Source: Callorhinchus milii (taxonomy: Eukaryota). Taken from it: a DNA stretch of 64,000 bases. Below, one piece after another: positions 6,992 to 38,098 of the stretch. The notes under the pieces were generated by a model. That model was not told the DNA's origin and did not search any database. It saw only the letters and a list, made by a program, of their open reading frames with translations. The translations under genes and the position numbers were made by a program. The stretch lies in assembly GCF_018977255.1 (NCBI RefSeq), contig NW_024704742.1, positions 13,332,001 through 13,396,000 on the forward strand. The letters run 5' to 3'. The first letter of the stretch is position 1. Every line of letters starts with the position of its first letter.

Positions 6992-7135
6992 TCACTGTAG
7001 AACCATGACATCAGCAGAGGGAGGAGGAAGGAGGTCCACTGCTTCTCTATAAGAGGGGGACACCCTCTGCATGGTCAGGTAAGGCAACCGGTATGATAGA
7101 ACTGGAGCATCAACAGGAAAAGTTGTATGCGTAGC
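6992..7135 (-). pseudogene. CCDC17-like probable last coding exon
   Basis: ctttgtttcag|GCT; ATHTTFPVDAPVLSYRLPYLTMQRVSPSYREAVDLLPPPSADVMVLQ*; ATTAAA downstream at 6854-6859. Confidence 0.6.
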
Positions 7136-8129
7136 CTGAAACAAAGATAACATTAATAAAGGGGGTAATAATCCCTAAAATAAATGTGGTCACTTAATTC
7201 ATGATTGTTGTGGGACAATGCTGTGCGCAATTGGTTTCTCCCACAAAATACACAATCAATCCAATTTACAATATATTCTGTGAAGCGCTTTGAGACTTCT
7301 CAACGATGTGATAAGGCGCTGTATCAAATGCAAGTATTATTATGTTACAATAAACCTCACAAAAGTCTTATCAGGTGGCATCATACATTTAATATGACTT
7401 ATGCAAAGTATGAGTTATGTGAAACTTGCATAATGTGAAACTTTTGCTCACAAAATACATGCACAGTCAATCCAATTTACAATATATTCTGTGAAGCACT
7501 TGGGACGTCCTCCCAATGTGAAAGGGGCTATACAAATGTAATACTGCATTGTAAATTGTAGGAAAATTTAATGGGACTTTTGCAGATATACAATTTAGGC
7601 AATTATACGATTTATGCAGATTAGATTTATGCAAGTTTTATTAAGAACATAAGAAATAGGAGTAAGAGTAAGCCATTCGGCCCCTCAAGCCTGCCCCGTC
7701 ATTTAATAAGATCATGGCTGATCTGCTAATTTAATTCCATTTATTCGCCCTATCCCCATATCCCTTAATCCCTTTAGTTTTTAAAAATCTATCGATCTCA
7801 GTTTGATTATGTTGAATGACTGAGCATCCACAGCCTTCTGGGGTCAGAATTCCATAAATTTACTACTCTCTAAGTGAACAAATGTTTTCTCAAACTGTGT
7901 TATTTTACAATGAGTTACCAGGAAGGATGGTCCAAGCCAGGTCACCGGGCTCATTTTTGAAGAATAGCTTGATGCTGTAATGGGAAGAGAGATTTAAATG
8001 GTTGAGATCAAATTGGACAAAGGGCCTTTTTGCAACCAAGCCTTTATGAGAAGGAATAAATTGGCCTGTCACCACATTGATGATCCTTTTCTCATCTCCA
8101 GCGCCTATAACCTGGATTTCTACAATAAT

Positions 8130-8530
8130 AATCCATACATTTGATATAATACCATATCACGTTGGAGGGCACCTCACAGCAATTCACAGAACATATTGAA
8201 AAGTGTAGTGACTGTGATTGTAGGCAAATGTGACAGCCAATTTGTGGACAGGAATGTTCCACAAACAGCCATGAAGTGAATGACCAATTTTATTTGGGGG
8301 ATTATTGGACAGGCTATCAGGAGAGAGAAACACCCTTCTCATTTCAAATAGTTTCATGGGATCTTTAACGTCCATCTGAACAGGCAGATAATTTAAGATC
8401 TCATCCAAAGCGCAACACAGCATCAGCAATGCACTGCAATATCAGCCAAAACTATGAGTTCAAAGTCCCGACGTAGCGATTGAACCCAAACTTTCAGTGA
8501 GAGTGCTATAAACTAAGCCAGACTGACACA
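8130..8530 (-). mobile_element. Older DeuSINE-like (SacSINE1/AmnSINE-type) element; related copies at about 17060-17450(-), 21150-21590(-), 51890-52190(-), 62075-62680(+)
   Basis: Core ...CTGCCTGTTCAGATGGACGTTAAAGATCCCATG.. resembles the recalled Deu domain; 3' part shared with the young SINE. Confidence 0.65.
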
Positions 8531-9680
8531 ATATCTCACCGTTCTCTATTTTTTCAACTCTAACAAGGCCAGTGCTCCTCCATATTTCCTTCTCTGTCCT
8601 TAACAAACTCCAAATATATCATCCTACATGTCAGAGTGTCATTTTAGTGTATTTATTTTCTTATAATTTGCCCCCCCTACTGTCTGCTCCTGGTATGACC
8701 TCTGCTTGTTGGGTACAATTTTTGCAGGGTTAAAAAATAATAAATAATCATTGCATTTGATATAGGTCTTGATATAGGTTATCAGGTCTTCGAGGCATCT
8801 CAAAGAACTTCCTCAGAATATACTGTAAAGTGAATTGACTGTATATTTTGTGGGCAAAACTAAATTGTTCCTGGACTTCATTGAGACCCAGAGTCCAGCT
8901 CTTCCAACTCCCCAAACCTCTGTTATTCATTCCTACCGAGGCACTTCTTGAATTCCCGATGGTGCTACAGTTGGGCATCTTGCAGCCCACAGACCACATG
9001 CAGGCTGCAATGCACATGCGAGGAACAGTCAAATGGGCTGTAAATTGGTCATCCCTAGTTTCGTGAACAGAGATTAGGAGATCGTAGTCTGTGCTGACTT
9101 TATTGATCGTAATTGGCTGCCACGTTTCGCCCCCAAAAAATATACAGTCAATTCACTTTACAGTATATTCTGTGAAGCACTTTGAGATGTCTCGAAGACA
9201 TGATAAGGTGCTATATCAAATGCAAGGATTATTATTATTATTATCATTATTATCTCAGCCAGAACTGCACAAGGGGGTTACATTAACCCTAGCCTTCCCA
9301 GGGTTTGGGAGTTCACCGTTTCTGCTCTAATCCCTCTACAGAACGCTCTACTGGTTGAATGTATGTGTGGCGGCCGTGTGAGGTGAGTCAGGCTCAGCTG
9401 TGACACCCCTGCGGTTGAGTGGTCTGACAGTACTTACTGTCTAGGCTCACAATGGGCCTTTTGGGTGAGTACCCAGTGCCGATGGAACCCTACCTCAGTA
9501 AGAGGAGGCCATACCAGGAGCAAAGAGATAGTGGGCAAACTAAAATTATATAAAGAATACTTGTAAAACTCTTTAACTCCTTCCATCATCCTTCCTCTTG
9601 TAAGACTTTTGGAAACCAAATTTGGTTTCACTTGACTACAACCCAACTCCTCTCCTAGATTTATAAACCTCAAAAGAGCC

Positions 9681-9760
9681 CCAACCCGTCACTCTGAGCA
9701 TTAACCCGTCACTCTGAACATTAACCCTTCACACTGAGCATTAACCCTTCACACTGAGCT
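9681..9760 (+). repeat. 20-bp tandem repeat x4
   Basis: TTAACCCKTCACWCTGAGCA units. Confidence 0.9.
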
Positions 9761-11480
9761 CCAACCGTTGACCTATATGGTAAATCCCCGACTTACCATA
9801 CTCTCGGTATCTGCAATTCCAACCTAGTCAGACTAGGCCTAAAATATATATATATTTTAATTTCCACAGGCCATTGTGTAGACTCCCAACTCCCCCAGTG
9901 CTCCAATGCTGAGTGCCTTCACAGTGGCCAGGAATATTGACTTTGATCAATTGTTTGAATCCTACGAGCAGAAGATAGCACGACTCAAATAATTACAATC
10001 CACTACCAGCATATTTCAGTGCTGAAATATAGAGGTAAATGCCGGTTCTTGTGTAATTACACCGAGCTGGAAGTTTCAGCTCTCCAGACAGGATTTTGCC
10101 CCATTGGTTAGGCTAGCTGGGGTTTAGATGTATTTCAATATAAATAGTAATTTTTCATCAATGTATTTAACAGAAAACTTCATGCCTACACGAGGAAAAA
10201 GGGAATAGTGGGGTATAGGAGATAGGAATAGGAGGGGTGGGGGCTCAAGCGGAATATAAATACCATCCTCGACCAGTTGGGCTAAATTACCTATTACTAC
10301 GTTGTATCACTTCACATAACTTTATGTAAAAAAAATCAAATATCGTTACACAATCCCTGTCCTCCCCCAAACAGGCAAGTTATGTGGTGGCAAGATAAAG
10401 AACATAAATGAAACCAGTTTCAACATTTGTTTAATTTCATTAGCGGTTTGAAACTGGTGTACAGTATAATGTATCGCTCCTCCACACCTGTTGCTGAGAG
10501 AATCTTGATCCTTCAGGGAGCCTTAACCAAGATGAATCCACAGTGTTATTCTGGCATTATTTTATTGTGGTACAGTATGGCCTTATTACCTTGTCGAGAT
10601 ATTTCAAAGCGCTTCACAGAATATACTGTAAAGTGAATTCACTGTGTATTTTGTGTGCCCAATAATAATTAGAAATGGATTTAGAAATTTCTAAACTTAT
10701 GTGAATTAATTAGATTAACCAGGACTTTGCACATTTTTAAAAAAAATCATTACCAGACTTTATAAGTTAACTGTGAAATGGCTCCAAATAGTTATTAAGT
10801 AATTCAAACTCTATCTCACCGTTTCTTATTGTCATATTTGATCACTTGTGTTAATCCATGCATCTTTCCAAGAAACTAGATTATGCCGGCATTGTCTAAA
10901 ATCCTATTTACATGCATGGCGGAGTTGATCAAAATAAGTAGGATTGGGCACTTCAAGAAATTTATAAATTTCTAAATTCAAGGAAACTGATTTTAACCGG
11001 ATTGAACATAATTCACAGGGAGTCTGATAATAATAATATTCCTTGCATTTGATATAGCGCTTTTCATGTCTTCTAGACGTCTCAGAGCCCTTCACAGAAT
11101 AGACTGAAAAGTGAATTGACTGCATATTTTTTGTGGGCGAAACGCGGCAGCCAATTACACACAGCAGTGTACCACAAACAGTCGTGGATTGAAGTGACCA
11201 ATTTATTGTTTTTTTTCTTGAGGGATTATTATCAGGCGTGTGGAGTAAGGAAACTTGCCCAAGGTTTCACCCTGCTCGAACCCTGATCTCTCGCTTGCAA
11301 AGTGAGCGCTCTAAACACTGAGCTACAGGACTCCACAAGAACTGGAATGTCAAGAGAGAGAGATACCGATATCAATAATTTAGAGTTGAAAGAGGCCTTG
11401 AATAGTGAAAGCCAATTGTCAATGTGTTCAAATAATACAGATGGAACAAGTAGTTTAGAATGGTCCTAAAATGTACTTAC

Positions 11481-11591
11481 CAATGGTGGATATTTATACA
11501 ACTTAGCATTATTGGGATCAATGGCAGGGTTTGTCTGGAGATCCACATCGCTTGTATTTACTAAGCGGAGGTACAGCTCGGCACTTTCTAA
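11481..11591 (-). pseudogene. CCDC17-like exon, 111 bp
   Basis: cttatag|TTA; LESAELYLRLVNTSDVDLQTNPAIDPNNAKLYKYPPL (cf. AELFLRLVNARD...YQYPP); TTG|gtaagt. Confidence 0.9.
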
Positions 11592-12444
11592 CTATAAGCC
11601 AAGGATACGAAAAAAACGTTTTTTTAAAAAAAAGAAATGTACATGACATATATAATGTACAAATCTCTCAGACACTGAGGGTATTGCTGACGTGGGGAAT
11701 GAAAAATATCACTGTGGATTACAGTCAAATTATCTTATTGGGAGAAATATATGCCACATGATGTGATAGTAGTTATAACCAGTAGTAGTTACCGTTAGGT
11801 CCACAATTCCACCGCGTCCTAACCCGTATACCCATTAAAATATAGGAAAGCATGGTACTGGGAAAAATTATTCAATATTCAACCCACAAAAGAACATTAA
11901 GAAGAATTTCTGGGCTATCTTCCATTTTAAGACTTGGAGACGCGAAGAAGAGTTTATTTAATTACTGTTCTTATTAGTGGTTAGAGCACTCGCCTCACAA
12001 GCGAGAGGACCTGGGTTTGATTCCCAACCGGGCGAAGCGTTGGGCAAGTTTCCTTACTCCACACACCTCTGTTTACCTAGCAGTAAGTTGTCAGTTGATT
12101 GGCGTATCGCTCTTCCGGGGGTAATAATCCCTTAAAACAAATGTGTTCATTCAATCCACGACTGTTTGTGGGACACTCCTGCCGCGTTTCACCCACAAAA
12201 TATACAGTCCATTCACTTCACAGTATATCCTGTGAAGCTCTTTGAGATATCTAGAAGACGTGATAAGGCGCTATATCAAATGCAAGGATTATTATTATTA
12301 TTAAAGACAAACAGGATAACAGTAGAATTTCAGGCCTCACTTTACATATTTCCCTCCAATTATGTGCAATCCCTCTTTTTCCCCTCCTATTGGATGGTGG
12401 GAAGGATTTGCTCACGAGACAAGACAGAAACTTTAGTGCAGTAC

Positions 12445-12667
12445 CTGAGGCACTCCATTTAGATCACTGGTTGTCATGGACGGTTTAACTGGAAGAACCC
12501 GAACTGGAATTTTCCAGCGGCCACTGATCACACGATTTTGACCATTAAAGATATCAATCTTAATCCAGCCTCATGAGGCAAGTCGCTTGATGTCCTTTCC
12601 ATAGGGATCAGAGCCACCTGAAGCCTGGAGTTCCATGACAAGAGCAATTCCAGGAGATGGACGGACC
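12445..12667 (-). pseudogene. CCDC17-like exon, 223 bp, in-frame TGA at 12571-12573
   Basis: ctctcag|G; VRPSPGIALVMELQASGGSDPYGKDIKRLAS*GWIKIDIFNGQNRVISGRWKIPVRVLPVKPSMTTSDLNGVPQ; CAG|gtactg. Confidence 0.9.
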
Positions 12668-13489
12668 CTGAGAGAATAATAAATAATAATAAATAAACTG
12701 TGAACAAAGAGGTTGCACATTTGTTTCAAAATACTCGAGGCAAAAAAAATCTTTCTTCAACACCAATTTGTGTTTGTCTTCTGTCCAACTTTGCCACAAA
12801 CACACACTCAGAGAAGGGAGGTTCTCTCGGTGTCCTGCCCAACAATCCCCCCAAATAAAACTGGTCATGGCTGTTTATGACACATTGCTGTGTGAAAATT
12901 AACTGCCGTATTCGCCTACAAATACACAGTCATTGCACTTTATAGTGAAGCGCTATGAGAGGTTTCAACGACGTGATAAGGCGCAATATAATAATAAATA
13001 ATAATAATAATAATCCTTGCATTTGATATAGCGCTTTTCACGTCGGGAGGACGTCCCAAAGCGCTTCACAGAACACACTGTAAAGTGAATTGACTGTATA
13101 TTTGTGGGCGAACGCGGCAGCCAATTGCGCACAGCAATGTCCCACAAACAGTCGTAGATTGAAAATGACCAATTTTTATTATTGTTTTTGGTTTTGGAGG
13201 GATTATTATTATTAGGCGTATATGAATATGAGATTCAAGGGTTATTATTATTATAGACAAGGCAGCAGACAAGCCTTCAGGCCTGGCAATCTGTAGAACC
13301 GGCCTATTGGTGAGAGGAGCCTAATCTGTCTTCTGATTTAATTGTATTTCAGCCATTCTTCCTCACTCTCCGGAATTCCATCTTGGAGTCCCTATGCTTG
13401 ACACACACAAACATGCACCTTCATAATCCACCTCAAAACCTATCTACCTATTCACCCACGTTTTCATTCATCTTCCCCCTCGCTCTTTC

Positions 13490-15655
13490 AACAACAACAA
13501 GAACAAGATTCCATTTATAAAGCGCCTTTCACGTCAGGAGGACGTCCCAAGGCGCTGCACAGTTGTGTCATGACCCGAGCAGGGGGGAAATGGTCAGGGT
13601 GAGGGGAGGGAAAGGAGGGAGCGAGGAGGGGGGAAATGGTCAGGGTGAGGGGAGGGAAGGGAGGGAGCGAGGAGGGGGAAGAGAGTCGAGAGGGGAGCTG
13701 AAGGCTCGGTCAAAGAGAAAGGTTTTGAGACCGGCCTTGAAGGAGGAAAGGGAGGAGGCGGCGAAGGCACTGGGGGATAGAGTTCCAGAGCCTCGGGGCT
13801 GAGAGGCTGAAGGCCCGGCCACCAATGGTAGGGCGGTTGGGGCGGGGGACGTGGAGCAGACCGGAGCCAGAGGAACGGAGGGTACGGGCAGGTAGGTAGG
13901 GGGATAGTAGGTTGGAGAGGTAGGAGGGAGCAAGGCCGTGAATGGCCTTGTAGGTGAGGATGAGGATCTTGAAATCAATCCTCTGGGGGATGGGGAGCCA
14001 GTGGAGGCGAGCGAGGGTGGGAGTGATGTGGTCCCGAAGCCTGGTGCGGGACAGTACACGAGCTGCAGAGTTCTGAATGACCTGCAGCTTGTGGAGGGAG
14101 GTGGCGGGAAGGCCGGCGAGGAGAGAGTTCCCATAGTCCAGCCTTGAGGTGACAAAGGCGTGGACCAGGGTTTCAGCAGCGTGAGGGGTGAGGTAGTGCC
14201 GTAGTCTGGCGATGTTCCGGAGGTGATGGAAGGCGGTGCCAGTTGTGGTGCGGATACAGCTCAGGGTCGAACAAAACCCCGAGGTTCCTGACTGGCTTTG
14301 AGAGGTGGAGAGTGCAGCCTTGGATGCTGATGGTGTCGGCGCCTGAGGTGCGGAGGCGCTGACGTGAGCCAATCAGGAGGGCCTCGGTTTTTCGCACGTT
14401 GAGCTGAAGAAAGTTGTCTCTCGTCCAGGACTCGATGTCGGACAGGCAGGCTGTCAGGACATCGGTGGTCGTGGAGTTGAGAGTAGAGGAGGAAAGGTAG
14501 AGTTGGGTGTCATCCGCATACATGTGGAAGTTAACTCCATGTCTGCGGATGATGTCACCAAGGGGGAGCATATAGAGGGTGAAGAGGAGGGGACCGAGGA
14601 CAGAGCCCTGAGGGACACCACATGAGACAGTACGGGGGGTGGAGGAGAAGCCATTCGTCGAGACAAAGTGAAGACGGTGAGAAAGGTACGACCTAAACCA
14701 CTCAAGGACAGTGCCTTGAAGGTTGAGGTGGGAGGACAAGCGGTGGAGTAGGATAGCGTGGTCGACCGTATCGAATGCTGCCGATAGGTCGAGGAGGACG
14801 AGGAGGCAGAGGGAGCCCTGGTCACAGATGGTCAGGATATCATTGGTGACCTTGACCAGGGCAGTTTCTGTGCTATGGGCAGCACGGAAACCTGACTGAA
14901 GGGGTTCGAAAAGTGAATGGGTGGAAAGGAAAGAGCGCAGTTGGGAGGCGACAACTCTTTCCAGGACCTTGGAGAGAAAGGGGAGGTTGGAGATGGGCCG
15001 GTAGCTTGATAGCTGCGACGCATCAAGGGAGGGTTTTTTCAGGGTGGGCGTGATGGTGGCAGTTTTTAAGGGAATGGGGACAGAGCCAGAGGAGAGGGAC
15101 AGGTTGATGATGTCGGTGATATGTGGGGCAAGAAAGTGGAGCTGGGAGATAAGGAGTGGAGTGGGGATGGGGTCAAGGGAGCAGGTGGTTGGTTTTAGGG
15201 ATAGGATGAGTTTGGTGACAGAGGGTGGGGAAACGGGTACAAAAGTGAGTAGGGGAGGATGGGTAGCAGTCGGAGTGTGGGAGTGAGGGGGTGGGGGGTT
15301 GGTGGATGTTGGAGGGGAAGTGACCGCGGAGCGAATTCCCTTGATCTTGGATTCAAGGAAATCCAGCATCTCCTCGCAGTGAAGGTTGGAGGAGATGACC
15401 TGCGCGGGGTGGCGGGGGGGACGGAGGAGTCGGGTTGTGGTGAAAAACAGTAGCCTGGGGTTGTTCTTCGCCTCCAGGATTATCCTGGAGTAGAAGGACG
15501 ACTTGGCCGAGGCTAGAGTGGAGCGGTAAATTTTGAGGAGGTCCAGCCAGATTTGTCGGTGGACCGTTAGGCCAGATTTGACACAGGTGCGTTCAGCAGC
15601 CCGCACCTGGCTTTTCAGTGAGCGGAGGTGGGTGGTGTACCAGGGGGAGTAGGAG
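13490..15655 (-). mobile_element. 5'-truncated, relatively young L2-clade LINE with RT domain and (TTG)n tail
   Basis: 477-aa ORF with [36 protein letters not shown]; small deletion/frameshift near 14255; C-terminal HWLP motif. Confidence 0.95.
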
Positions 15656-15857
15656 TAGGAGACAGGTCAACTCCCCGATCCCAAGCTTGAGCACCCAGTG
15701 AGTTGTGTGAAACCCCTTGAGATGTCTGTTATATGCATGTAACTTGTTTATTCTGGTGAAGATCTGTACATTACTCCTGCTGAATATTAAAAAATGTAGC
15801 TATATAATAATAATAATCATCCTTGAATTTAATATAGTGCTTTATAACATCTTCAAG

Positions 15858-16635
15858 ACAACAACAAGAACAACTTGCACTTATAAAGCGCCATCCATGC
15901 AGGATAGCATCTCAGAGCGCTTAACAGCCTGACTCCGAGTCAGGGGGAGTGGGAGACAACAACAACAACTTGGATTTATATAGCGCCCTCCACGCCGGAC
16001 GGTGTCTCAGAGCGCTTCACAGTAATGGATCCCGGGGCCGAGCCAGGGGGAGGGGGAGGAAGTTGACCAAAGGCGCGGTCGAAAAGAAAGGTCTTCAGCA
16101 GAGACCTGAAAATGGGAAGGGAGGGAGCAAGACGAAGGGAGTGAGGAAGGCAGTTCCAAAGCCTTAGGGTGTAGTGGCTGAAGGAGAGAGGAGAAATCGA
16201 TCCTCTCTGGGATAGGCAGCCAGTGCAGTCTGGCAAGGACTGGGGTAATCGGGGAGCGGAGTTTCATGCAGGTGAGAATGCGGGCGGCAGAGTTTTGAAT
16301 TATTTGAATTTTATGGATGCCAGTGGAGGGGAGACCGGCGAGGAGGGCGTTGGAGTAGTCTAGCCAAGAGGTGACAAAGGCATGGACCAGGGTTTCAGTG
16401 GCTTTTGGGGAGAGGTATTGGCGGAGACGGGTGATGCATCGGAGGTGGAAGGAAGTGGTGCTGGTGAGGGACCGGATGTGGGGGAGGAAGGATAATTGGG
16501 GGTCGAACCTGACGCCTAAGTGGCATACGGGTTCGACGAGTTTTAGGGGGAGGTCGGGCAGGTGGAGGCGGTGAGAGCCGTGAGATTTTAGACATTGACG
16601 AGAGCCAAAGAGTATGGCTTCTGTCTTGTCAACGA
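15858..16635 (-). mobile_element. Stacked L2 3'-end fragments
   Basis: ITPVLARLHWLPIPERIDF; (CAA)n tails on + strand; similar 3' fragments at about 2673-2940, 3598-3870, 19358-19565, 31445-31780(+), 34000-34250, 34613-34900, 42497-42700, 43270-43495(+), 51238-51545, 53248-53610, 56640-57150. Confidence 0.8.
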
Positions 16636-17526
16636 CATCTCAAAGCACTTCGCAGAATATACTGTAAAGTGAATTTTGTGGGCAAAATGCAGCAGCCAAT
16701 TGTGCACAGCAGTGTCTCACAAACAGTCTTGATTGAAGTGACCAAATTGTTATTTTTTTCTTGAAGGGATTATTATCCTCAGAAAAGCGACCTGCCAATC
16801 GACTAACAACCTGGTTCCTACTTACTGCGAGGTAAATCAGAGGCATGTGGAGTAAGGAAACTTGCCCAACATTTCGTCCTGCCCAGGAATGGATTGGGGA
16901 AACTAATGAATGGTTATTTCAAACCAAATACCTGGTGTTAAAACTGGAAGTGCTGATGATGAAAGGTCTAAACAAACAGTGGGACAGGGATGAAAGGAAT
17001 AATCCTCTGTTTTTAGTCAAACAGTCGTACCTTATCACGATTTGACTGGTTGACTAAGCATTTCACAGCATTTACTGCCAAGTGTAGCAACTGAATATTT
17101 GTACAGGCAAACACGGCAGCCAAATTGCACACAACAATGTCCCATAGACAGCCATGAAGCGAGTAACCAATCTTATTTAGAGAATTGTTGGCCAGAACAC
17201 CAGGAGAAATTCACTTCTCTTTTCGAATAGTGACAGAAAATCTTTAACGTAGACAAAAACAGGCAGATGGAGCCTCAGTTTAACGTCTCATATGAAGGAC
17301 GGCACTTCTGACAATGCAGGGTTCCTTCAGCACTTCACTGGAGCGTCAGGCTAGACTGTGAGCTCAATATCTCAATGTTGAGAGATACAGGACTTGAACC
17401 TGCAATCTTCAGACTCAGAGGCAAGAGTCTACCAATGTAGCCAAGTTGAGAAAGCAATTTGTATTTATTCAGTTAAAAAATAATGTTGGTTTAAGTTATA
17501 ACTTGATGAGCTAAGTGAACCAGCAC

Positions 17527-17742
17527 CTGGGCATGACTTGTTTGATAGCCAGTGTTGCCTCGCTGCCTCTCTTACTAACAGGAAAGGAGGCAGTTAGGTT
17601 GGTAACATCACAGTAGGCAGAAGGCAATGGAGATGGGCTTCCCATTGCCTGCCCTCCATAGTATAGTCCTATCACCAGGCGGCAAACCCGGTACAAAGGA
17701 TTCAATCCCAGCAAGAAATCATAAAACACAGCAAAACCAGTT
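17527..17742 (-). pseudogene. CCDC17-like exon, 216 bp
   Basis: ttcctgcag|A; TGFAVFYDFLLGLNPLYRVCRLVIGLYYGGQAMGSPSPLPSAYC...LAIKQVMPR (cf. AGLVIFYDFLRGL...LASRQPVPR); AG|gtgctg. Confidence 0.88.
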
Positions 17743-18481
17743 CTGCAGGAAAGAGGAAAGAAGGTTTCACATGAAGAGTAATTCATGAATTTGATACAGC
17801 ACCTCATCCCAACAAAAGAGCACTTCACCAGATGGGAACTTGGTTTAACAGCTCATTTGATACTTTAGACTGAATGGCCTTCTTCCATGCTGCAAATAAT
17901 AAATAATAATCCTTGCATTTGACATAGCGCCTTATCACCTCTTGAGATGTCTCAAAGAGAATATACTGTAAAGTGAATTGACTATATATTTTGTGGGTGT
18001 TACGTGGCAGCCAATTGTGCACAGCAGTGCCCCACAAACAATGGTGGATTGAGTGACCAAATTTTTTTTTGAAGGGTTATTACCCATGGAAAAGCGATCC
18101 ATCAATTGACCAACAACTGGGTTCCTATTTATTGCTAGGTAAACAGAGGTGTGTGGAGTAAGGAAACTTGCCTAACGTTTCGCCCTGCTGGGAATCTAAC
18201 CTAGGTCTCTCGCTTGCAAGGTGAGTGCTCTAACCACTGAGCTACAGGACTCCACAAATGTTCTGGGGATCTATCTTTCAAAAAAATGAATCGCTATGAA
18301 CTTCTTTTAAATAATGGCTTCATCAGACAGAAACATGGTTTACACATCTCATCTGATACAACAGGCTGCATCGCTTTTCGCTATGCTGTAAAACATTTTA
18401 CGTTTCCATCTGTCAAAAAAATAAATCTGTTCTGAATTATATAGTAATCTAATAACTCAACAACCTTTGGAAAGCACTCAC

Positions 18482-18555
18482 ATTGGGTCATAAGGTGCAG
18501 GCCCCAAGCCGTCACTGGAGTTGGCAAGAGTTGGAGTTTGGGGCCAAAGCTCCCC
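18482..18555 (-). pseudogene. CCDC17-like exon, 74 bp
   Basis: catag|GGG; GELWPQTPTLANSSDGLGPAPYDP; AT|gtgagt. Confidence 0.85.
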
Positions 18556-19723
18556 CTATGTCAGTGAAATACAAAAAGAGGATTTAAGTTTCACAGAAGA
18601 TGAACTTAAGATCTATGTTAAAGCCATCATTTTGAACAAGCAGAGAATTCAGCCTACGATGCAAATTTCCATGCATCTTATTGCATATTCCAAGCATTGC
18701 TTGCTTTGGAATTCAATTCTTTTTTCGGTTCATTTCAGCCCATTTCCAAAATAAAACCTGGTGTGTTTCACCTGTGCTGACACAATGAAATGACTGGTGT
18801 ACCTGACATCAGATATCCCTTCTCCCCCCATGCATCTGGCAATGTGTTTGTGCGCTAGGTGTTCATCTTTGCCCCTTTTACAATGCAGTTTTCCCTCAAC
18901 CAAAACCCTCTGCCATCTGGAAATTTGCAAGGCATTATTTGACTAAGTGTGCATTACTGACACACCAGTCCTGTCCTCCTGCCACATCCATGCACTTTTC
19001 CAAGAAGATCTTTGATTAAAGATCAGTAGTTCCTCTCCCTCCCCGCATGGGAATTTGGGTTTACCTGCGTCCCATGTATGCTGCTTGGACATTTCCTCCA
19101 CCTTTTTACAAACATATTGCTGATTGGAACACTGGTTATCCATCAAATAATAGCCCCCTTGCCTGGATTTGCCATCCACACTAATGGTCATTGTGAAAGA
19201 CACAAAACAAAAGTGCTCACAATTAAGCTAAATGTGTCAATATATCACACGCTGGGATATCAACCAGGGTTTAAAATACTGGAGTCTTAACAAGATTAAC
19301 AAAGTAATCGGGAATGTTGAATCCTGCCAGTTACTGAATGTGTCTTGCACACACTGACAACAACAACTTGCATTTATATAGTGCCCCTCACGCAGGGTAG
19401 CTTCCCAGAGCGCTCGACAGTGGCGGAGCACGAACTCGACCCAGTGGGAAGGGGGAGATGACCATAGGCACTCTTGAAAGGGAAGGTCTTCAGGTGCGAC
19501 CTGAAGATGGGGAGGAAGGGGCAAGGCGGAGGGATAGAGGTAGAATGTTCCAGAGTTTCGGGGCAGACACTTTGCTGTGACGGAGAATCGGGAGTTCTGA
19601 TGATTGGCATGACATACATTCAGTTACTGTCAGGATTCAATATTTACCACGACATTCACGTTCAGCTGACAATGACTAGGTTTCCCCCTGGTGGAAGCCT
19701 TACTGGTTACAATCTGCTCTTAC

Positions 19724-19911
19724 CAGTGGCAGGAAGGGAGGAGCTTGGGGATGAGCTGCAGGAGCATTTTGTGTATTTGGGCTCCTCATGTGGGATCGGA
19801 ACCGCTGAATCTCCATCTCCTGCTTCAAAAGGTCAACCTCTGTGTTCAGTAGCTTAATTTTCTCAATGCTCCTCTTCTTACTTGCCTGCAGTTTATCATG
19901 ATCATCTGCAT
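19724..19911 (-). pseudogene. CCDC17-like exon, 188 bp
   Basis: ttttactag|AT; ADDHDKLQASKKRSIEKIKLLNTEVDLLKQEMEIQRFRSHMRSPNTQNAPAAHPQAPPFLPL; CTG|gtaaga; phase 1 to 0 fits both neighbours. Confidence 0.8.
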
Positions 19912-24436: not shown

Positions 24437-24556
24437 CTGATTTCAGATGACAGGCTTCCTCCTCCATAGAAAGGAATGTAAGTCTGTGACTGTTGAACTG
24501 TCTCCTTTTTCTTTGAAGAGTGGGAGGTTCTTGGTCTCCTTTCAGCTTTGTTCCGC
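24437..24556 (-). pseudogene. CCDC17-like exon, 120 bp
   Basis: gtgtag|G; RNKAERRPRTSHSSKKKETVQQSQTYIPFYGGGSLSSEI; AG|gtaatg. Confidence 0.8.
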
Positions 24557-25778: not shown

Positions 25779-25932
25779 ATTGGCTCCATCTGTAGAATCT
25801 CCAGCTGTTGTTTCATAGAATGAAGAAGCAACTAATTTTTGTGTTCCTGGACCTTCACCTCTGACAACATTTTCTTAACTTGGCAAGAGGTTTTGCTGTG
25901 ATGAGACAATTCATTTAATCTTCTCACAATTT
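25779..25932 (-). pseudogene. CCDC17-like exon, 154 bp, in-frame TAG at 25832-25834
   Basis: ttttgcag|AA; (E)IVRRLNELSHHSKTSCQVKKMLSEVKVQEHKN*LLLHSMKQQLEILQMEP; AT|gtaagg. Confidence 0.78.
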
Positions 25933-26654
25933 CTGCAAAAGGATTACAAAGGAGAGCCTATCATGAGTATCTCTGTGTATCAGTTTCTCCCACAAAATAT
26001 ACAGTCAATTCACTTTACAATATATTCTGTGAAGTGCTTTGAGATGCCTCAAAGGCCGTATATCAATTGCAAGGATTATTATTATTACTATTACCATCAT
26101 CTACAACAACAACAATATTTTATAGAGCGCCTTTCACGGGAGGACGTCCCAAAGCTACCGGTAACAAAGGCAGAGCACCTGTAAAGCTGATGATTTACAC
26201 AGCTCGGAGTCAAACGGTCAAAACCCTCATTCACATCTCGATCACAACAAAATTACATTTGTATAGCGCTTTTCACATCGGGAGAACATCCAAAGGCACT
26301 GGACAGTCAGTGTTATCTCCTGACTAGGAGAAAAACACTCAAAACACTCTGGTTCCACCATCCATAAACACTCTGGTTCCACCATCCATAAGCTCCAGCT
26401 TTACTACCGGAGTCCTCACCAGCACTCTAGTTCCGATCAGGTTTCCCTGGCTGCCTGGCTCTCAACAGATCCACTTCAATATCCTCAACCCCACCTATAA
26501 ACCTCTTGACGTCCCAACACCTTCCTATCTCAGTGTCCTTCCTAGACCCCAGCTTTCTGTTCCCCGCCTCCTCTGTTCTGGTAATTTGCTCTTGCTGCGT
26601 GACCCATGTTCTCCTAACTACCATTAGCGGTCAGTTCTTCAGTTATTACACTTG

Positions 26655-29625
26655 AGCAGAGAGCCCAGCAGCGTGAGGAGGGAACTGAGTGAGGTGAAAC
26701 AGAGTGAGAATTTTGTTAAGGAATTTGGTGCAGAATGCGAAAGAGGTGCAGAATTATAAAACATATATTTATATTAATAATATAAAACACGCCTGGAAAT
26801 ATGGCAGGGCAGCTGAGACCGGTTCCATGCACAATGTGTGCCATGTGGGAACTCCAGGATGCTCTGTGTGCCCTGGCCAGACACGTATGTAAGAAGCTGC
26901 TCGAGCTTGAGCTCAGAGTTTCTGAGCTTGAGGAGAGGCTGGTGTCATTACATAGCATATGGGAGGCTGAAGAGTTCATGGATCGAACGTTTCAGGAGGT
27001 AGTCACCCCACAGCCACAGAGGGTTCAGAACGAGAGTGAGTGGGTGACCACCTGGCATGGTAGGAAGAAAGGATGGGGATTGCAGCAATCCCCTGAGTGT
27101 GGCACTCACAAACCGGGTCTCTGCACTGAATGCCAGTCAGGGTGATGACCCTCTGCGGAGGGTAATCAAAAGCAAATGGGTGCACAGGGGGACACAGGGA
27201 ATAGTCTATGCAATTGTCATTGGGGACACAATGGTGAAAGGAGCAGACAGGCGTTTCTGCAACCAAAGACATGACTCTCGCATAGTATGTTGCCTCCATG
27301 GTGCCAGGGTTAAAGACATCACAGAACGTGTGCAAAATGTTCTACAGGGGGAAGAGGACCATCCAGAGGTCATGGTCCATGTTGGGCTCCATGACGTAGG
27401 GAAAAAAAGGGCTAAGATCCTACAGGGAGAGTATCAGAAGCTAGGGAAAAAGCTAAAGAGCAGGACCTCAAAGATGTTGATCTCTGGATTACTCCCAGTG
27501 CCTCGTGCAAGTGAGTATCAAAACAGCAGGATCAAATACATGAATGCATGGCTGGAGAAATTATGATGGCTGGAGGGCTTCAGGTTCCTGGATCATTGGA
27601 ACCAGTTCTGGAGCAGGTGGAACCTGTACAAGGTGGATGGGTTACGCCTGATCAGGGCTGGGACCAATGTCCTTGCAGGAAGGTGCTGTGGGAAGGGGTT
27701 TAAACTAATTTTGAGGAGGGAGGGAATCAGGATGTAGCATTCGAGAGGACAATAATTTATATAGAGGGCTGGGAGAGATGAATAGCAATTTAATGAGGAG
27801 TAATCCAGAAAAAGGAGGGATTAGATGGGGGAGAAATGCAGAACAGACTAAGTTGGTCATGGAGTGCAAGTGCGTAAATGCACAGAATGTGACAAATAAG
27901 GTTGGTGAGCTGCAGGCTCAAGTTGCCACATGGGGATATGATGTAGTGGCAATAACGGAGACCTGGTTCAAACAAGGGCAGGAATGGGAGCTGACTATTC
28001 CTGTCTACAATGTATTCAGGACAGATAGGGAAGGAAAAAAAGGGGTGGTCAATATTGATTAAATACAAGTTTTAAAAAAGGAGGCCTATGATAAATGTCA
28101 GGTCCAAAATACAGAAAATAATCAAATAGAATATAGAAAGTACACAGAGGAGAACTGAAAAAGGAAAGGGGCAAAGAGATTGTATGAGAAAAGATTAGTG
28201 GGTAACACACAAGGGAAAACTAAGGTATTTTATAAAGAATAAAAGGTTAGTCAAAGGTAGGGTAATAAATAATAATAATCCTTGCATTTGATATAGCGCT
28301 TTTCATGTCGGGAGGATGTCCCAAAGCGCTTCACAGAACACACTGTAAAGTGAATTGACTGTATATTTGTGGGCGAACGCAGCAGCCAATTGCGCACAGC
28401 AATGTCCCACAAACAGTCGTAGGTTGAAAATGACCAATTTATTATTGTTTTTGGTTTTGGAGGGATTATTATTAGGCTCTGTGTGGAGTAAGGAAACTTG
28501 CCCAAGCTTTCGCCCTCTGCCTGGAATTGAACTCAGGTCTCTCGCTTGCAAAGCGAGTGCTCTAACCACTGAGCTACAGGACTCCACAATTAGGGTGGGT
28601 CCAATTAGGGACCAAAAAGGAAATCTTCTTGTGGAGGCAGAGGGCATGGCTGACATACTGAATGAGTACTTTACATCTGTCTTCACAAAAAAAGAGGATG
28701 CAACCAATGCAAGTGTTGGAGGAGAGGGTAGAGAAATTAGATAAGATAAGAAGAAACTGAGAGGAGGTACTAAAAAGGTTGTCATTGCTCAAGGTAGATA
28801 AGTCACCCGGTTCGGATGGGATGCATCCTAAGTTACTAAGTTACTGAGGGACGTAAGGATGGGAATGGGATTGACATTACACTCTTCAAAGAGCCGGCAC
28901 AGACTCGATGGACCGAATGGCCTCTTTTTGTGCTGTACGATTCTATGATTCTAAATCTTTGAAGGTGGCAGGAAGGTAGATAAAGTTGTTAAAACAGCTT
29001 ACAGGTTACTAGGCTTTATAAATAGGGGCAGAGAATACAAAAGTCAGGAAGTTATGATGAACCTTTATAAAATACTGGTTAGGCCTTAGCTAGAGACTGT
29101 GTTCAGTTCTGGCCCCACACTTTGGGAAGGATGTCCAGGCACTGGAGAGGGTGCAAAGGAGATTTACCAGGATGGTACCAGGAATGAGAGACTTCAGTTA
29201 TCAGGAGAGGCTTGAGGAGCGAGGATTATTCTCCTTGGAGTAGAGAAGGTTAAGAAGAGACTTAATAGAAGTTTTCAAAATTATGAGGGGATTCGGTAGG
29301 GTGAACAAGGAGAAACTATTTCCACTGGTAACCCGAGGGTACTGATTTAAAATAGTTGTTAAAAGAAACACAAGGGGAGGTGAGGAGAATTTTTTGTTTA
29401 CAAGCGAGTTGTTTGGATGTGGAATGCATTGCCTGAAAAGGCGGTGGAAGCCGATTCGATAGCAGCTTTCAAGAGAGAAGTAGATAATTATTTTGGGAAA
29501 ATAAGTTTGCAGGGCTATGGGGTGAGAGAGGGAGAGTGGGATTGAATTGGATAGCTCTTTTCAAAGAGCTGGCACAGACACGATGGGCCGTATGGCCTAC
29601 TTCTGGGTTGTATGATTCTATGATA
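26655..29625 (+). mobile_element. CR1 LINE retaining its 5' region and ORF1 (zinc finger/coiled coil plus SGNH esterase), with deleted ORF2, a SINE insert and two 3' ends
   Basis: MAGQLRPVPCTMCAMWE...LELRVSELEERL; VIGDTMVK..CCLHGARVKD..MVHVG; ORF2 start CVNAQNVTNKVGEL..DVVAITETW; 3' tails at about 28950 and 29620. Confidence 0.88.
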
Positions 29626-30102
29626 CACCCCTAACCTCTGGAACTCCCTCCCTATGTCTCAGCCCTTCTCTGGTTTTAAATTCCACCTAAAACCTACCTC
29701 TTCAACTGTACCTAATGTCAGCCCACCTCCCCACTCCCCCTTTCCTTTGGTGACCCTGAAGCGATCCAAGACACAATCCCACAGGAAGGCACTATATAAA
29801 GGAACGTTGATCAGCTGACATTGTTTGGGTGGGAGCAAGGTGTTCTAGGTTAAAGACATGAAGTAGCACCATCAAGGGATAAGATCAATGTTAGACAGTA
29901 GAGATGGAAAAGTGCTGAATCCTAGCTCCAGAAATATCCTGTGACCGACAACCAGAAACATACAGTCACTACATAATAAGAGTTAGTAACTTATTGGGGT
30001 CAGTAAGTGGCCCCAGGCTGTATTATAAATGCTGTCCTAGGCGGGATCTTATTTCAACTCTAACGCCAATAATGTATTTTTATTGAAAGTTTGTGAGATT
30101 AC

Positions 30103-30233
30103 CTTTTCTCTGCCTATCCAGCTCTTTGTTCTGAGCTAATATATTGGCCACTTGTTTCCCATGATTCTCTGCCACACTCTATAGCTGGTCCTGGGGCTCT
30201 TGTACCCACTGCTCTATTCGGGCTTGGGACATC
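30103..30233 (-). pseudogene. CCDC17-like exon, 131 bp, in-frame TAG at 30179-30181
   Basis: ttctcag|G ATG; MSQARIEQWVQEPQDQL*SVAENHGKQVANILAQNKELDRQRK; G|gtaatc; phase matches the next exon. Confidence 0.75.
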
Positions 30234-31073
30234 CTGAGAATGAAAGCATGTCCACAGGAAGAGAACACATGTGAGCACACAGGCACTTTGATTTGATTGA
30301 CACGATGGACCAAATGGTCTTCTTCTGTGCTGTACTTTTCTCTGGCTTGAGAATGAACCAAGATTTGTCAGAACACTTTTTACATAAACCCCGAACAGTA
30401 GTTACTGTTTAGATACACCAAGGAAGGAGAATAAAAGTTACACAGATATTGTGTGTACACTGGAACAGGTTACAGGGGAGCTCAGGCCAAGATGCTGGGC
30501 TTATAATAATAATCCTTGCATTTAATATAGCGCCTTATCACATTTTTGAGACATCTCAAAGCACTTCATAGAATATATAGATAAAGTGAATTAACTGTAC
30601 ATTTTGTGGGCGAAACACAGCAGCCAATTGCTCACAGCAGTGTCCCTCAAATAGTCATGGATTGAGTAATCCAATTATTATTGTTTTTTTTAAAAATTGT
30701 ATTGAAGTGGTTATTAGCCCTGGAAACACATCCGCCAAACAACTAATAACTGGGTTCCAGCTAGGCAAATAGAGACGTGAGGAGTAAGGAAACTTGCCCA
30801 ACATTTCACCCTGCCCAGGTGAACCCATTGAACCGAGGTGTCTCACTTACTCTAACCACTGAGCCACAGGATTTGTGTAAGAAACAGCTTAATGCTGTGA
30901 TGCAAGGACCTTAGGGTGGGTGCCATGGCAGAATTATGAAGGATACGCAGCCTGCACAGCGCTGGCGATCTGAACTTTAAGGTGGATCTGATGATGGCTT
31001 CCACTTCTCCAGAGAAATTTGACAGGTCTCGTTAGGATGAGGAGGTTGGTAGCAGACTGAGGTCACAATTCAC

Positions 31074-34200: not shown

Positions 34201-36112
34201 GGGACTGTGTGATGGAATTCCAGAGGGAGCAGAGAGGCTGAAGGCCCACCTTCGTAATTCATAGAAGCAATTGACTGTAAGCATAATCGTATGCGAGCAA
34301 GGGAAGCCAATAAACTAAAAACATTAGTTTAATTCTCAAAGGCCTCACTTTGAGGCCTTTGAGATTATTCACAAAATAATAATCCCCTCAAATGTACAAT
34401 CTGTCTTCCTGGGTTGTCAATTCCATGTATTCACTGTGCTCTGTGTATAGTGGAGCGGCAAAATAATTCCACTTGTGTCCTCTATTTCACATATTAACTA
34501 CACTCTGTGTATAGCAAAACACCCAGACCTTCAACACACAGGGGATGTGCAATTATGTAATGCATTGGCACCGCCCCATGCAACTGAGGGAATGAACGCT
34601 GGTTTGTTCCGACAACAACAACTTGCATTTATATAGCGCCCTTCATGCCAGACAGCATCTCAGAGCACTTAACAATGGCGGAGCCCGATGCCAAGCCGGA
34701 GGGAGGGGAAAAGTGACCGTAGGCACCGTTGAAGAGGAAGATCGTCAATCGTGACCTGAAAATGGGGAGAGTGGAGGCAAGGTGAAGGGATTGAGGGAGA
34801 GAGTTCCATAGTTTTGGGGCGTAGTGGCTGAAAACACGGCCGGCGTTGGTGGAGCGGAGGTTCCCGGGGACAAAGAGGAGGCCGGAGCCAGTCGAACGGA
34901 AGCAGTGGGTATGCTGCAAACAGTAAATGCTGGACATCACCCAGGTTATCTAGGGGTGATAGGAAAGAAAAGTAGGAAAAAGGGGGAGATTGTGCAGAAC
35001 GAAGGGAAAGTTAAACCGGGGTCATCTCCTAGCAACTAATTTCTGCATACAACAACATTGTCAGAGACCCAAAGGCAGGAGAGTCCCTGTACTTCTGATG
35101 GGAAGGAATTATTACTCCCGGAAAACCGATCCGCCAATTGACTAACAACCAGGTTCCTACTTATTACTAGGTAAACAGGCGCATGGAGTAAGAAAACTTG
35201 CCTAAGATTTTTACACCGTTACGATTTTGCCAACATTGCAAAAGGCAGTCCTATCTGCTGTCTGATCTATTGGCAGTAAAAGGCCAACTTCACTCTTGTA
35301 ATTTGTAATATTGTTTCATGACTTTACTTTAATCCATAAGATTTTCACTATTTCAAACAAAGTGATGGGGGTAGGTCAATATTATTCTCCCTGCTCCACA
35401 AGCCATATCCACATCCCACAACCTCAAGATATCTGAAGTGCAGATAAAAAGAAAACACGCGAAAGTCCTTGATTAAAATATAAAATGCTGGCAATATACC
35501 AGCAGGTCAACCAGCAGCTGAATGAGAAAAACAGCTCACCGCACCTCTCTCCCTGGTTAGTGTCAACCAATGGTAAAACCTCCAGGAAGCAATCATTTAG
35601 AGTCCTGTAGCTCAGTGGTTAGAGCATTCACCTCGCAAGCAAGAGACCTGGCTTTGATTCCCGGCAAGGCGAAACCCTGGGAAAGTTTCCACATGCCTGA
35701 TAATAATCCCTCAAGAAAAAAACAATAATAATTTGGTCACTCAATCCACGACTGTTTGTGGATTGCCGCGTTTCGCCCACAAATATACGGTCAATTCATT
35801 TTAAAATATATACTGTGAAACGCTTTGAAATGTTTCAAAGACGTGAAAAGCACTATATCAAATGCAAGGATCTCCTTTTTCAATTGTCTTTGAGTCCTTG
35901 GGTTTTAATATCTTCCATTACTGCCCTCTTACGGTTAAAATAATGAAATAAATTGTTTTGCATTTTTTGTAATGTCCATTTCCAGTCGCTCTTAGTGCCC
36001 CAATTTCTCTTTACAATACCTATTACTGTGGTCTTGTATTCAGCCCAATGCTGAACCTCTTATTTCTCCTTATGAGCATTGTGAACCTTCCCTTTTTTAA
36101 CATAGCACAAAC

Positions 36113-36262
36113 CTGGCCAATTTGTGATTTCAGAATAGAATCTGACTGCAGGTCAGATCCCAGGTTCTCGCTCAGTAACTTCTGCTGTTTCCTGTCCATT
36201 TCTTCCAACGTGTCCCACTGCCCCATCTCACATTGTTGCTTATAGTCCTTAAGTTGATCAAA
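36113..36262 (-). pseudogene. CCDC17-like probable exon, 150 bp
   Basis: tttttag|TTT ... CAG|gtttgt; open frame FDQLKDYKQQCEMGQWDTLEEMDRKQQKLLSENLGSDLQSDSILKSQIGQ (coiled-coil-like). Confidence 0.55.
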
Positions 36263-37984
36263 CTAAAAAAATAAAGACTTACATCGATTGAAGTATAAAA
36301 AATCCATTCCCAAATCACTCACTTTTACTTATACAAACCCGGTCTGAGACATCGTAAAGTGCTTCACAGAATATACTGTAAAGAGAATTGACTGTATATT
36401 TTGTGGGCAAAAAGTGGCAGCAGATTGCACATAGCAGTATCCCACAAACGGTCGTGGATTGAGTGACCAATTGTTTTTTTAAGAAATTATTACCCCCGGA
36501 CAAACTAATAATAATAATAATCCTTGCATTTGATATAGCGCTTTTCACGTCGGGAGGACGTCCCAAAGCGCTTCACAGAACACACTGTAAAGTGAATTGA
36601 CTGTATATTTGTTGGCGAACGCGGCAGTCAATTGCGCACAGCAATGTCCCACAAACAGTCGTAGATTGAAAATGACCAATTTATTATTGTTTTTGGTTTT
36701 GGAGGGATTATTATTAGGCGTGTGGATTAAGGAAACTTGCTCAAGGTTTCGCCCTGCCTGGAATTGAAGTCGGGTCTCTCACTTGCAAAGCGAGTGCTCT
36801 AACCACTGAGCTACAGGACTCCACGCAACAACCCAATTCCTCCTTATTGCTAAGCAAACAGAGACATGTGGAGTAAGGAAACTTGCCCAAGGTTTCGCCC
36901 TGCCTGGAATCGAACCCAGGTTTATCACTTGCGAGGCGAGTGCTCTTTCCACTGACCTACAGGACTCCACCCTTTTTACCGTTAATAAGCGAAATACTGC
37001 AAAATGTGTTCTGGTACAAGACTGGAGACACAGATTATGGATTGGAAATCAATGCAAGAAAACAAACCTGTATCTTTACAAAGTGGGATGAGCACTTGAA
37101 TATTCAAAACAAATAGTAGCCCAATCACACTACACAACTTGTGTTGCTGGAAAAAAAGAAAAAGTTAACAATTTTGTCTTTCATAGAGAGGTATTGGGAC
37201 AACCAAGAAGGGTGGATGAAACAAGGGCAGGATAGCTCTTAAAGGGTATTCAATAAATACCTGAAGGTAAAACCTACAAACAACAACAACTTGCATTTAT
37301 ATAGGGGCTTTCACGCCAGATTACGTCTCAGAGCGCTTGATATGTGTGGGATAGGATGGGGGAGTGGGACTACATGTTTACAATTTTCCTTTTCCTGTAG
37401 CTCAGTGGTTAGAGCACTCGCTTTGCAAGCGAGAGGCCTGGTTTCGATTCCTGGCAGGGCGAAAGGTTGGGCAAGTTTCCTTACTCCACACGGCTCTGTT
37501 CACCTAGCAGTAAATAGGAACCCTGTTGTTAGTCGATTGGCAGATCGTTTTTCTGGGGATAATAATTCCTTAAAAAAAATTGCTCAATCAATCCACGACT
37601 ATGTGTGGGACTCTGCTGTGTGCAATTGGCTGCCACGATTCACCCACAAAATATACGGTCAATTCACTTTACATTATATTCTGTGAAACGCTTTGAGACA
37701 TCTCGAATATGTGATGGGGTGCTATATCAAATGTAAGAATTATTATTATTATAATAACTTTTACAATGCAGAGTTTCCCAAGCACAGCACAGGAAATGCC
37801 AACCTGGACTATGAGCAGAAAATCCCAATGTGGGCTTTAACCCACAACCATTGACTCAGAGTGCTAGTAACTAAGTAATAATAGTATTATAGTAATAAAG
37901 ATAACTTTACTGCTAAAATATTAGCCCCAGTGGGTAACACAAAAACCATAAGTTGAACTAAAAAAAACGCTTACCTACACTCAC

Positions 37985-38098
37985 TCTGTCATCACCTTGA
38001 TTTCTTTCTATTTCTCTTTGCTTTATTCTTTGTCTGGAAGTTTTTGAAGTTGTGCATTAGTGACTGTCTTTGGGAGAGGAGGAGAGAAGGATGGATAT
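37985..38098 (-). pseudogene. Possible 5' exon of the CCDC17-like gene, with in-frame TAA (38057-59)
   Basis: ttttctcttttag acceptor, AGA|gtgagt donor, phase 0-0; ISILLSSSPKDSH*CTTSKTSRQRIKQREIERNQGDDR; no recognisable homology. Confidence 0.3.

Follow-up and report, generated by a model that had tools for sequence, protein, structure and literature searches.

A probable transcribed, unprocessed pseudogene of CCDC17-like beside RCL1 in Callorhinchus milii

A 64,000-nucleotide stretch of the Callorhinchus milii genome (C1:13332001-13396000, in an assembly of 991.5 Mb and 1762 contigs; hereafter the window) was analysed for a CCDC17-family gene on its minus strand, behind RCL1. The locus is very probably an unprocessed, intron-bearing and transcribed pseudogene of CCDC17-like (CCDC17L), in which an exon series collinear with the CCDC17-like genes of sharks and rays carries premature stops, a recognisable first exon was not found, and a spliced contig from a public sequencing run holds two of the stops. 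A second member of the family, the CCDC17 proper of this genome, lies on another contig, C5 (hereafter the C5 copy).

Gene model and disabling changes

A gene with CCDC17-family motifs beside RCL1 had been proposed in a first-pass annotation of the window, and five motif strings taken from it were each recovered once by exact-string search, all on the minus strand (Table 1). When the translation of a single exon (71 residues) was used as query, the sole relative among 50 candidates was P0001 (E 5e-21, 66% identity), a 601-residue 'coiled-coil domain-containing protein 17-like' of the skate Amblyraja radiata. With P0001 and the CCDC17-like proteins of a devil ray (P0002, 668 residues) and a catshark (P0007, 672 residues) as tblastn queries, collinear exon matches were obtained from 36262 to 6992 on the minus strand, at per-exon E values of 3e-3 to 7e-36, and residues 47-662 of the 672 in the catshark protein were covered by 12 window exons.

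Junctions were refined by enumerating frame-keeping GT or GC donors and AG acceptors and comparing each joined peptide, by score, with the catshark protein, producing a 12-exon model (36262-6992, 29.3 kb) with a joined frame of 1809 nt that no frameshift breaks, and with repeat-rich introns totalling 27.5 kb. All 11 introns are GT..AG, with none of the 22 splice-site dinucleotides damaged, and their phases agree. Ambiguity was confined to the exon 2/exon 3 junction (three candidates within 6 score points), the exon 2 donor lying at 36109 or 36113; relative to sharks, exon 2 also has a 7-residue in-frame gap. The canonical ends and matching phases claimed at first pass for ten exons over 23 kb therefore stand, with the count and span corrected; as for the limits given there, 6992-38098, the lower is indeed the stop codon of the last exon, and nothing homologous was found between 36263 and 38098 by peptide, N-terminal and profile searches.

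The window product is 62-65% identical to elasmobranch CCDC17-like proteins over ~620 residues (65% over 618 residues for Heptranchias), a similarity far beyond chance. The CCDC17-family layout consists of an N-terminal C..C...H...C motif, coiled coils and a conserved C-terminal region; the N-terminal motif was not found in the window copy, and the C-terminal motifs (GPAPYDP..GF.VFYDF..GL, SGRWK.P and AELY.R.VN) are kept there, at columns for which a 42-protein alignment shows either no variation or a conservation of 90% or more. The relatives bear the precomputed domain labels PF28454 and PF28455; a Pfam search of seven exon-bearing open reading frame (ORF) pieces gave only a chance bZIP_2 match (E 0.12), and the Pfam set used was also blank for P0001, a bearer of both labels. 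A search of solved structures yielded nothing beyond a coiled-coil match to HAUS1 at chance level (E 0.004), and among the collected relatives no protein was at least 90% identical to the window copy or to the C5 copy.

The joined frame is interrupted by three premature stops, at model residues 66 (TAG, exon 3), 125 (TAG, exon 4) and 476 (TGA, exon 11), the last at a site where all relatives shown have Arg. It ends at TGA 6994-6992, and because the next seven codons (YNTLVET), which precede a stop at 6970-6968, still resemble the tail of the ray proteins, this TGA may be a fourth nonsense change, 7 codons short of the ancestral end.

In relatives, exon 1 encodes the start codon and a C2H2-like motif (M...C..C.M.FKS..LLEKH.EKFCIG, columns at least 90% conserved in the 42-protein alignment). 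Searches of the 64-kb window with exon 1 peptides from 11 of 11 proteins did not find it, the best match (E 0.003) lying on a frame that resembles a short interspersed nuclear element (SINE) and contains a stop; as controls, 3 of 3 peptide searches recovered exon 1 of the C5 copy (E 5e-10 to 8e-8). Neither was it found by a 41-row profile run against 4730 six-frame ORFs of the window (best window E 0.17), the same profile returning exon 1 of the C5 copy at 6e-22, nor by the N-terminal 110 residues searched against 36001-42000. The interval expected to hold exon 1, between RCL1 and exon 2, contains three Rfam matches to tRNA-type SINEs at 36749-37458; Pfam returned only pieces of RCL1 and of the reverse transcriptase of long interspersed nuclear elements (LINEs) on 129 minus-strand ORFs from 38-56 kb, and no family on 11 plus-strand ORFs from 36-45.6 kb.

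The CCDC17-like genes of Heptranchias perlo (P0003), Scyliorhinus canicula (P0007) and Amblyraja radiata (P0001) have collinear exons and C-terminal motifs in common with the window copy; they are annotated as intact, with 600-672 residues, whereas the window copy has 3-4 premature stops, no exon 1 and the gap in exon 2.

Table 1. Coordinates of the window copy, its motifs and neighbouring features (window positions unless a contig is named).
Feature	Position	Strand	Evidence or remark
Exon 2, first exon found	36109-36262	-	tblastn E 8e-4 to 2e-6; acceptor ...ttttttag directly upstream
Exon 3, premature TAG 30181-30179	30103-30222	-	tblastn, junction refinement
Exon 4, premature TAG 25834-25832	25779-25932	-	tblastn, junction refinement
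Exon 5 (FYGGGSLSSEI)	24437-24556	-	tblastn, junction refinement
Exon 6 (LSYLQNGGND motif)	23907-24046	-	motif search, tblastn, junction refinement
Exon 7 (coiled-coil, IENQRLEEEILKLQ)	21724-21888	-	tblastn, junction refinement
Exon 8 (coiled-coil)	19724-19911	-	tblastn, junction refinement
Exon 9 (GPAPYDP)	18482-18555	-	motif search, tblastn, junction refinement
Exon 10 (GFAVFYDFLLGL)	17527-17742	-	motif search, tblastn, junction refinement; unique in genome
Exon 11 (SGRWKIP), premature TGA 12573-12571	12445-12667	-	motif search, tblastn, junction refinement
Exon 12 (AELYLRLVN)	11481-11591	-	motif search, tblastn, junction refinement
Last exon	coding part 7135-6992, with tail to 6968	-	tblastn, junction refinement
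GGND motif	24007-24018	-	exact string
PAPYDP motif	18484-18501	-	exact string
GFAVFYDF motif	17715-17738	-	exact string
SGRWKIP motif	12505-12525	-	exact string
AELYLRLVN motif	11556-11582	-	exact string
Interval expected to hold exon 1	36263-45596 (9.3 kb, RCL1 stop to exon 2)	-	no exon 1 found
RCL1, last five coding exons (59818-59666, 57459-57334, 56101-55943, 50977-50870, 45740-45597)	45597-59818	-	directly upstream, same strand
mir-101 precursor, last RCL1 intron	50616-50689	-	Rfam RF00253, 83.2 bits
Vasculin-family (GPBP1L1-like) exons	C5:22528874-22530382		flank of C5 copy
SHNi-TPR (NASP-like)	C5:22550327-22550398		other flank of C5 copy; genome's only such match

Transcription and the standing of the stops

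For a 1.3-kb piece of the locus, 24 public runs were listed, and four of these (X1, X2, X6 and X18, all under one organism label) were aligned to window 11400-31000. X1 and X2, which share most query words and whose kind is not on record, were taken as DNA-type, and X6 and X18 were guessed to be RNA; among the 24 listed runs, no RNA holder was named for the 1.3-kb query. Record 12 of X18 (671 letters) joins 30211-30103, 25932-25778, 24555-24437, 24046-23906 and 21887-21741 (exons 3-7), the 4 of 4 introns in between being absent and each junction lying no more than 1 base from the predicted site. It contains both TAG codons, without a differing letter in those pieces of exons 3 and 4, its sole difference being 24467 T>A in exon 5 (Tyr to Phe). 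In record 25 of X6 (342 letters), exon 7 (21724-21887) stands in the middle of the longer record. Record 14 of X2, from another sample, covers 12320-12931 including the TGA of exon 11, with 0 differing letters; this record is 9 letters shorter than the window over the same span, the gap falling in the intron or in exon 11. Among 40 listed rows of differing letters (of 46), none coincides with a stop codon.

The locus is transcribed and spliced, because the X18 contig joins exons 3-7 at the predicted sites with two of the stops in it. A processed copy cannot account for the spliced contig, since each of the 13 protein matches obtained across the genome has the size of an exon, and they fall at two loci only. 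Disabling mutations were found, then, in a gene that bears introns, and were seen outside the assembly too, as the definition of an unprocessed pseudogene has it. Like other unprocessed, transcribed pseudogenes of duplicated genes, the window copy combines retained introns and nonsense mutations with ongoing transcription and splicing, and is distinguished from that class only by the pairing of a very old parent duplication with a young-looking decay. With at least three premature stops in the spliced message, and with exon 1 and its start codon and C2H2-like motif not found, no full-length protein would be made, the stops and the missing first exon together precluding it. The transcripts would be substrates for nonsense-mediated decay, and the intact CCDC17 on C5 presumably covers the remaining function.

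Precise splicing at the 4 of 4 introns seen, and the survival of every splice-site dinucleotide, would also suit a spliced transcript kept for a non-coding role, or a shortened protein made from an internal start, perhaps through read-through from RCL1, which is immediately upstream and oriented the same way; the locus yielded neither a first exon nor a promoter of its own. We consider such a retained role unlikely, as only a short C-terminal piece follows the last premature stop, at residue 476 of 602, and young pseudogenes commonly stay transcribed. An intact gene, with stops that are errors of assembly or sequencing, would accord with the lack of frameshifts, the intact splice sites and a conservation as high as that of the functional paralog, and is nevertheless very hard to sustain: two stops recur in a spliced contig of another run, the third is also read in a DNA contig from a different sample, three independent stop-making errors are improbable, and exon 1 is missing as well.

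Phylogeny, the C5 copy and the age of the inactivation

A search with the skate protein returned 217 relatives, of which the best 120 were listed, many species among these having both 'CCDC17' and 'CCDC17-like' entries. From the 120, 54 were chosen for taxon spread and combined with the two conceptual proteins of C. milii in a 56-row tree rooted on lamprey, the entries set aside being mostly extra frogs, isoforms and fragments. Two gnathostome clades were recovered. The CCDC17-like clade (L; 32 rows, Shimodaira-Hasegawa-like approximate likelihood ratio test (SH-aLRT) support 100) comprises elasmobranchs with the window copy, lungfish, coelacanth, 7 amphibians and 13 ray-finned fishes, teleosts among them. 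Within it, 9 elasmobranch CCDC17-like rows form the sister group of the window copy (SH-aLRT 99). The CCDC17 clade (C; 23 rows, SH-aLRT 99) comprises elasmobranchs with the C5 copy, lungfish, coelacanth, 3 ray-finned fishes, 4 amphibians and 5 reptiles, with the C5 copy sister to 8 elasmobranch CCDC17 rows (SH-aLRT 98). Its place in the tree makes the window copy orthologous to the elasmobranch 'CCDC17-like' genes.

A profile search of 1.84 billion representatives (623 matches at E ≤0.001), together with a cluster look-up, supplied invertebrate outgroups, and in the resulting 33-row tree, with amphioxus, annelid, nemertean and cnidarian rows, both clades stand (supports 98 and 100). That the window copy could be a young, lineage-specific duplicate of the C5 CCDC17 that later decayed, as two copies in one genome might suggest, is barely credible, because it groups with the CCDC17-like genes of elasmobranchs and bony fishes and not with the C5 copy, and a tree forcing the two together (a group named after the tree had been seen, yet the obvious prior rival) was rejected (difference in log-likelihood 313, approximately unbiased (AU) test p 0.000135).

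Exactly two CCDC17-family loci were found in the genome, 8 of the 13 protein matches lying on C1 in the window and 5 on C5, in agreement with the second copy that the first-pass annotation had predicted; its separateness by tree, and the contrast between GPBP1L1/NASP and RCL1 surroundings that had been proposed as a check, were borne out too, and the two alternatives named there, a sole CCDC17 ortholog with no other copy in the genome and a lack of significant similarity to CCDC17, fall with the existence of the C5 copy and the significant similarity of the window copy to the CCDC17 family. The C5 copy (C5:22534747-22546690) is compact, 12 kb compared with 29 kb for the window copy; its exons match residues 1-650 of catshark CCDC17 (P0066), and it is 63-65% identical to its elasmobranch CCDC17 orthologs. 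It is stop-free in 10 of 11 refined joins, the best-scoring exon 2/3 join carrying a stop; this junction is ambiguous, so ~20 residues were entered as X in the trees, and all that was seen of the last exon is an open frame closed by a stop. PMC4082323 describes the order GPBP1L1 - CCDC17 - NASP as conserved from coelacanth to tetrapods and also in fishes. Because it lies between GPBP1L1-like and NASP-like exons, in the published order, the C5 copy is, on synteny, the CCDC17 ortholog. It belongs to the same family as the window copy, in the sister clade, and differs from it in falling within a separate gnathostome-wide clade, in having stop-free homologous exons and in its GPBP1L1-like and NASP-like flanks.

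CCDC17-like was found in sharks, rays, sturgeons, bichirs, gar, bowfin, teleosts, coelacanth, lungfish and amphibians, and is already annotated automatically in dozens of genomes. Its retention in chondrichthyans, as claimed at first pass, thus holds for sharks and rays, but is not confined to them, bony fishes and amphibians having it too. No amniote is among the 32 rows of the L clade, and the 12 amniote entries among the best 120 of the 217 relatives are all named CCDC17, with 308-399 bits compared with 466-587 for amphibian L proteins; CCDC17-like appears to be missing from the sampled reptiles. Birds and mammals have no entry among the best 120 of the 217 relatives and hence lie outside the sample. 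Plain 'CCDC17' entries of Arapaima, Clupea and Aplochiton, together with Xenopus laevis P0054 and Microcaecilia P0033, fall in the L clade. Automatic names, read against the tree, do not track the two paralogs.

The terminal branch of the window copy measures 0.32-0.38, compared with 0.29-0.30 for the intact C5 paralog. Of 119 columns without variation across 18 other CCDC17L proteins, 110 are unchanged in the window copy; the 9 changed ones are the highest count of 19 rows (0 to 7 of 110-117 for intact genes), and a high score is in any case to be expected of a lone long branch. In the frame of the window copy, about 4% of random substitutions would create a stop, and three stops correspond to ~3.7-4.2% neutral change (Poisson 95% range for 3 events, 0.6-8.8), with the low end favoured because there is no frameshift at all. 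The similar identity and branch length, the invariant columns, the few stops and the lack of frameshifts together point to constraint on CCDC17-like for nearly all of the time since the holocephalan/elasmobranch split, and we infer that the inactivation is recent. The first-pass annotation had said as much, and the three nonsense codons, unshifted frame, unrecovered exon 1, working splicing and barely eroded conservation speak for it.

Several points weigh against a pseudogene. The RNA label of X6 and X18 is a guess, and since both also hold intronic contigs they contain unspliced or genomic material. Contigs, which drop rare variants, were used and not reads, so an intact allele may segregate in the population; the comparison covered only two DNA-type and two RNA-type runs of the 24 listed, and no stop was covered by any X1 piece among those listed. 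The window copy exceeds intact genes only slightly in changes at invariant columns, too little to demonstrate relaxed constraint statistically. Exon 1 was sought through sequence similarity, so there may be a non-homologous alternative first exon, or an exon 1 changed beyond recognition.

Origin of the pair and genomic surroundings

In the 33-row tree both clades hold cartilaginous and bony fishes, which places the duplication node after the amphioxus split and before the chondrichthyan/osteichthyan split. CCDC17 and CCDC17L are, in our view, rather more probably than otherwise ohnologs from the vertebrate whole-genome duplications, with the window copy as the 9p24-like member of a 1p/9p paralogon, an origin compatible with the pseudogene reading. 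The timing fits those duplications, and the copies lie on different contigs, C1 and C5, which also hold the only two mir-101 loci of the genome: the first is in the RCL1 intron (C1) and the second at C5:3717962-3718036, 24 kb from JAK-type FERM exons. We take these loci to mirror the human arrangement of RCL1 with mir-101-2 and of JAK1 with mir-101-1; human CCDC17 is presumably at 1p34.1. The ADK, JAK and Vasculin families are each present on both C1 and C5, and in Heptranchias and Rhincodon a CCDC17L-type protein and RCL1 are reported on a contig of identical length, a linkage at chromosome level only. Against this origin, C1 is very large (>123 Mb), so the families shared by C1 and C5 may be there by chance; a distance of 19 Mb separates the mir-101/JAK block (3.7 Mb) from CCDC17 (22.5 Mb) on C5; a DM-domain check found no DMRT cluster near either CCDC17-family locus; and in the 33-row tree vertebrates were united at a support of 72 only, with the lamprey taking no settled place. 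The genome-duplication origin suggested at first pass is accordingly matched by the timing and the mir-101 contigs, and is not proven.

The block of RCL1 and JAK2 that the first-pass annotation had invoked was not recovered as such. JAK-type FERM_F2 exons were found at C1:77969768-77972496, at 3.74 Mb of C5, and on C29 and C21; the only ones on C1 (at 77.97 Mb) are 64 Mb from RCL1, a distance that also counts against the paralogon, and a JAK gene adjoining RCL1 was rejected. If the C1 gene is JAK2, the RCL1-JAK2 adjacency of human is not kept here.

Taken as a whole, we hold with confidence and doubt in equal measure that CCDC17L is an ancient vertebrate sister of CCDC17, probably from the genome duplications, that all the main anamniote gnathostome lineages sampled retain it, and that it has undergone at least two independent losses, one on the amniote stem and a recent one in this holocephalan lineage, where a message is still made, possibly as RCL1 read-through. 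The CCDC17 family has two gnathostome-wide branches, one of them missing from the sampled reptiles, and the 'CCDC17-like' of Xenopus, axolotl and gar would be without a human counterpart, mammals lying outside the sample. For annotation, the 29-kb stretch beside RCL1 would be a transcribed pseudogene and not an empty, repeat-filled spacer. If this broader reading is true, the animal would be a natural knock-out for the role of the second copy, and a cartilaginous fish with a just-lost CCDC17-like could hint at the dispensability of the gene. The case adds a well-documented example of an old duplicate gene lost late and in one particular lineage; differential losses of this kind are common and current views are not overturned, so that this is a sound but ordinary instance, caught early.

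A preprint (bioRxiv 10.1101/672626) gives CCDC17 as a ciliated-cell marker in the human fallopian tube, and PMC12832812 has it rising with cilia genes in mouse lung. No literature naming or discussing a CCDC17L paralog was found ('ccdc17l' and 'ccdc17-like', 0 occurrences, supplements being outside the search), and no title among the matches listed contained CCDC17 as a whole word.

The pseudogene stands tail-to-head behind RCL1 on the minus strand, with the end of RCL1 9.3 kb upstream. RCL1 was identified by RTC and RTC_insert family matches inside the window and just beyond it; an exon query returned RCL1 proteins of many vertebrates, the best named being 'RNA terminal phosphate cyclase-like 1' of Callorhinchus milii, and this protein matches five window exons at 90-100% identity, four of them at ≥97%. 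A gene of the adenylate-kinase family (ADK) lies 15 kb past the 5' end of RCL1; human AK3 is, we assume, likewise beyond RCL1. On the other side, a UDP-glycosyltransferase (UDPGT) gene at C1:13303356-13315571 (+) ends 16 kb left of the window, tail to tail with the pseudogene. The annotated protein P0011 of the little skate fuses a CCDC17-like N-terminal half with a UDPGT part, a chimera hinting at adjacency of the two genes in that species also; the UDPGT part of P0011 had no match in the window.

Several repeats were noted in the window. An open LINE frame of 497 codons (14176-15666, minus strand), with a complete RVT_1 domain (E 5e-37), lies in the intron between exons 10 and 11, and belongs to a very abundant family, since contig depth over it is enormous in all four runs. 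The 11 Rfam tRNA matches in the window are copies of tRNA-type SINEs, and its left 7 kb are transposon debris. Similar peptides are encoded at 21140-21490 (-), 8184-8441 (-) and 62418-62477 (+) (PVQVDVKDLMALFEKKREFL, PVQMDVKDPMKLFEMRRVFL and VQVDIKDPMALFEKQRE, respectively), probably an unclassified repeat family with a coding-like core. A tandem array at 5900-6120, just below the gene end, gives the repeated peptide PGRLHLPYPCLRD in ORF translations, and two single Ns stand at 31643 and 38901.

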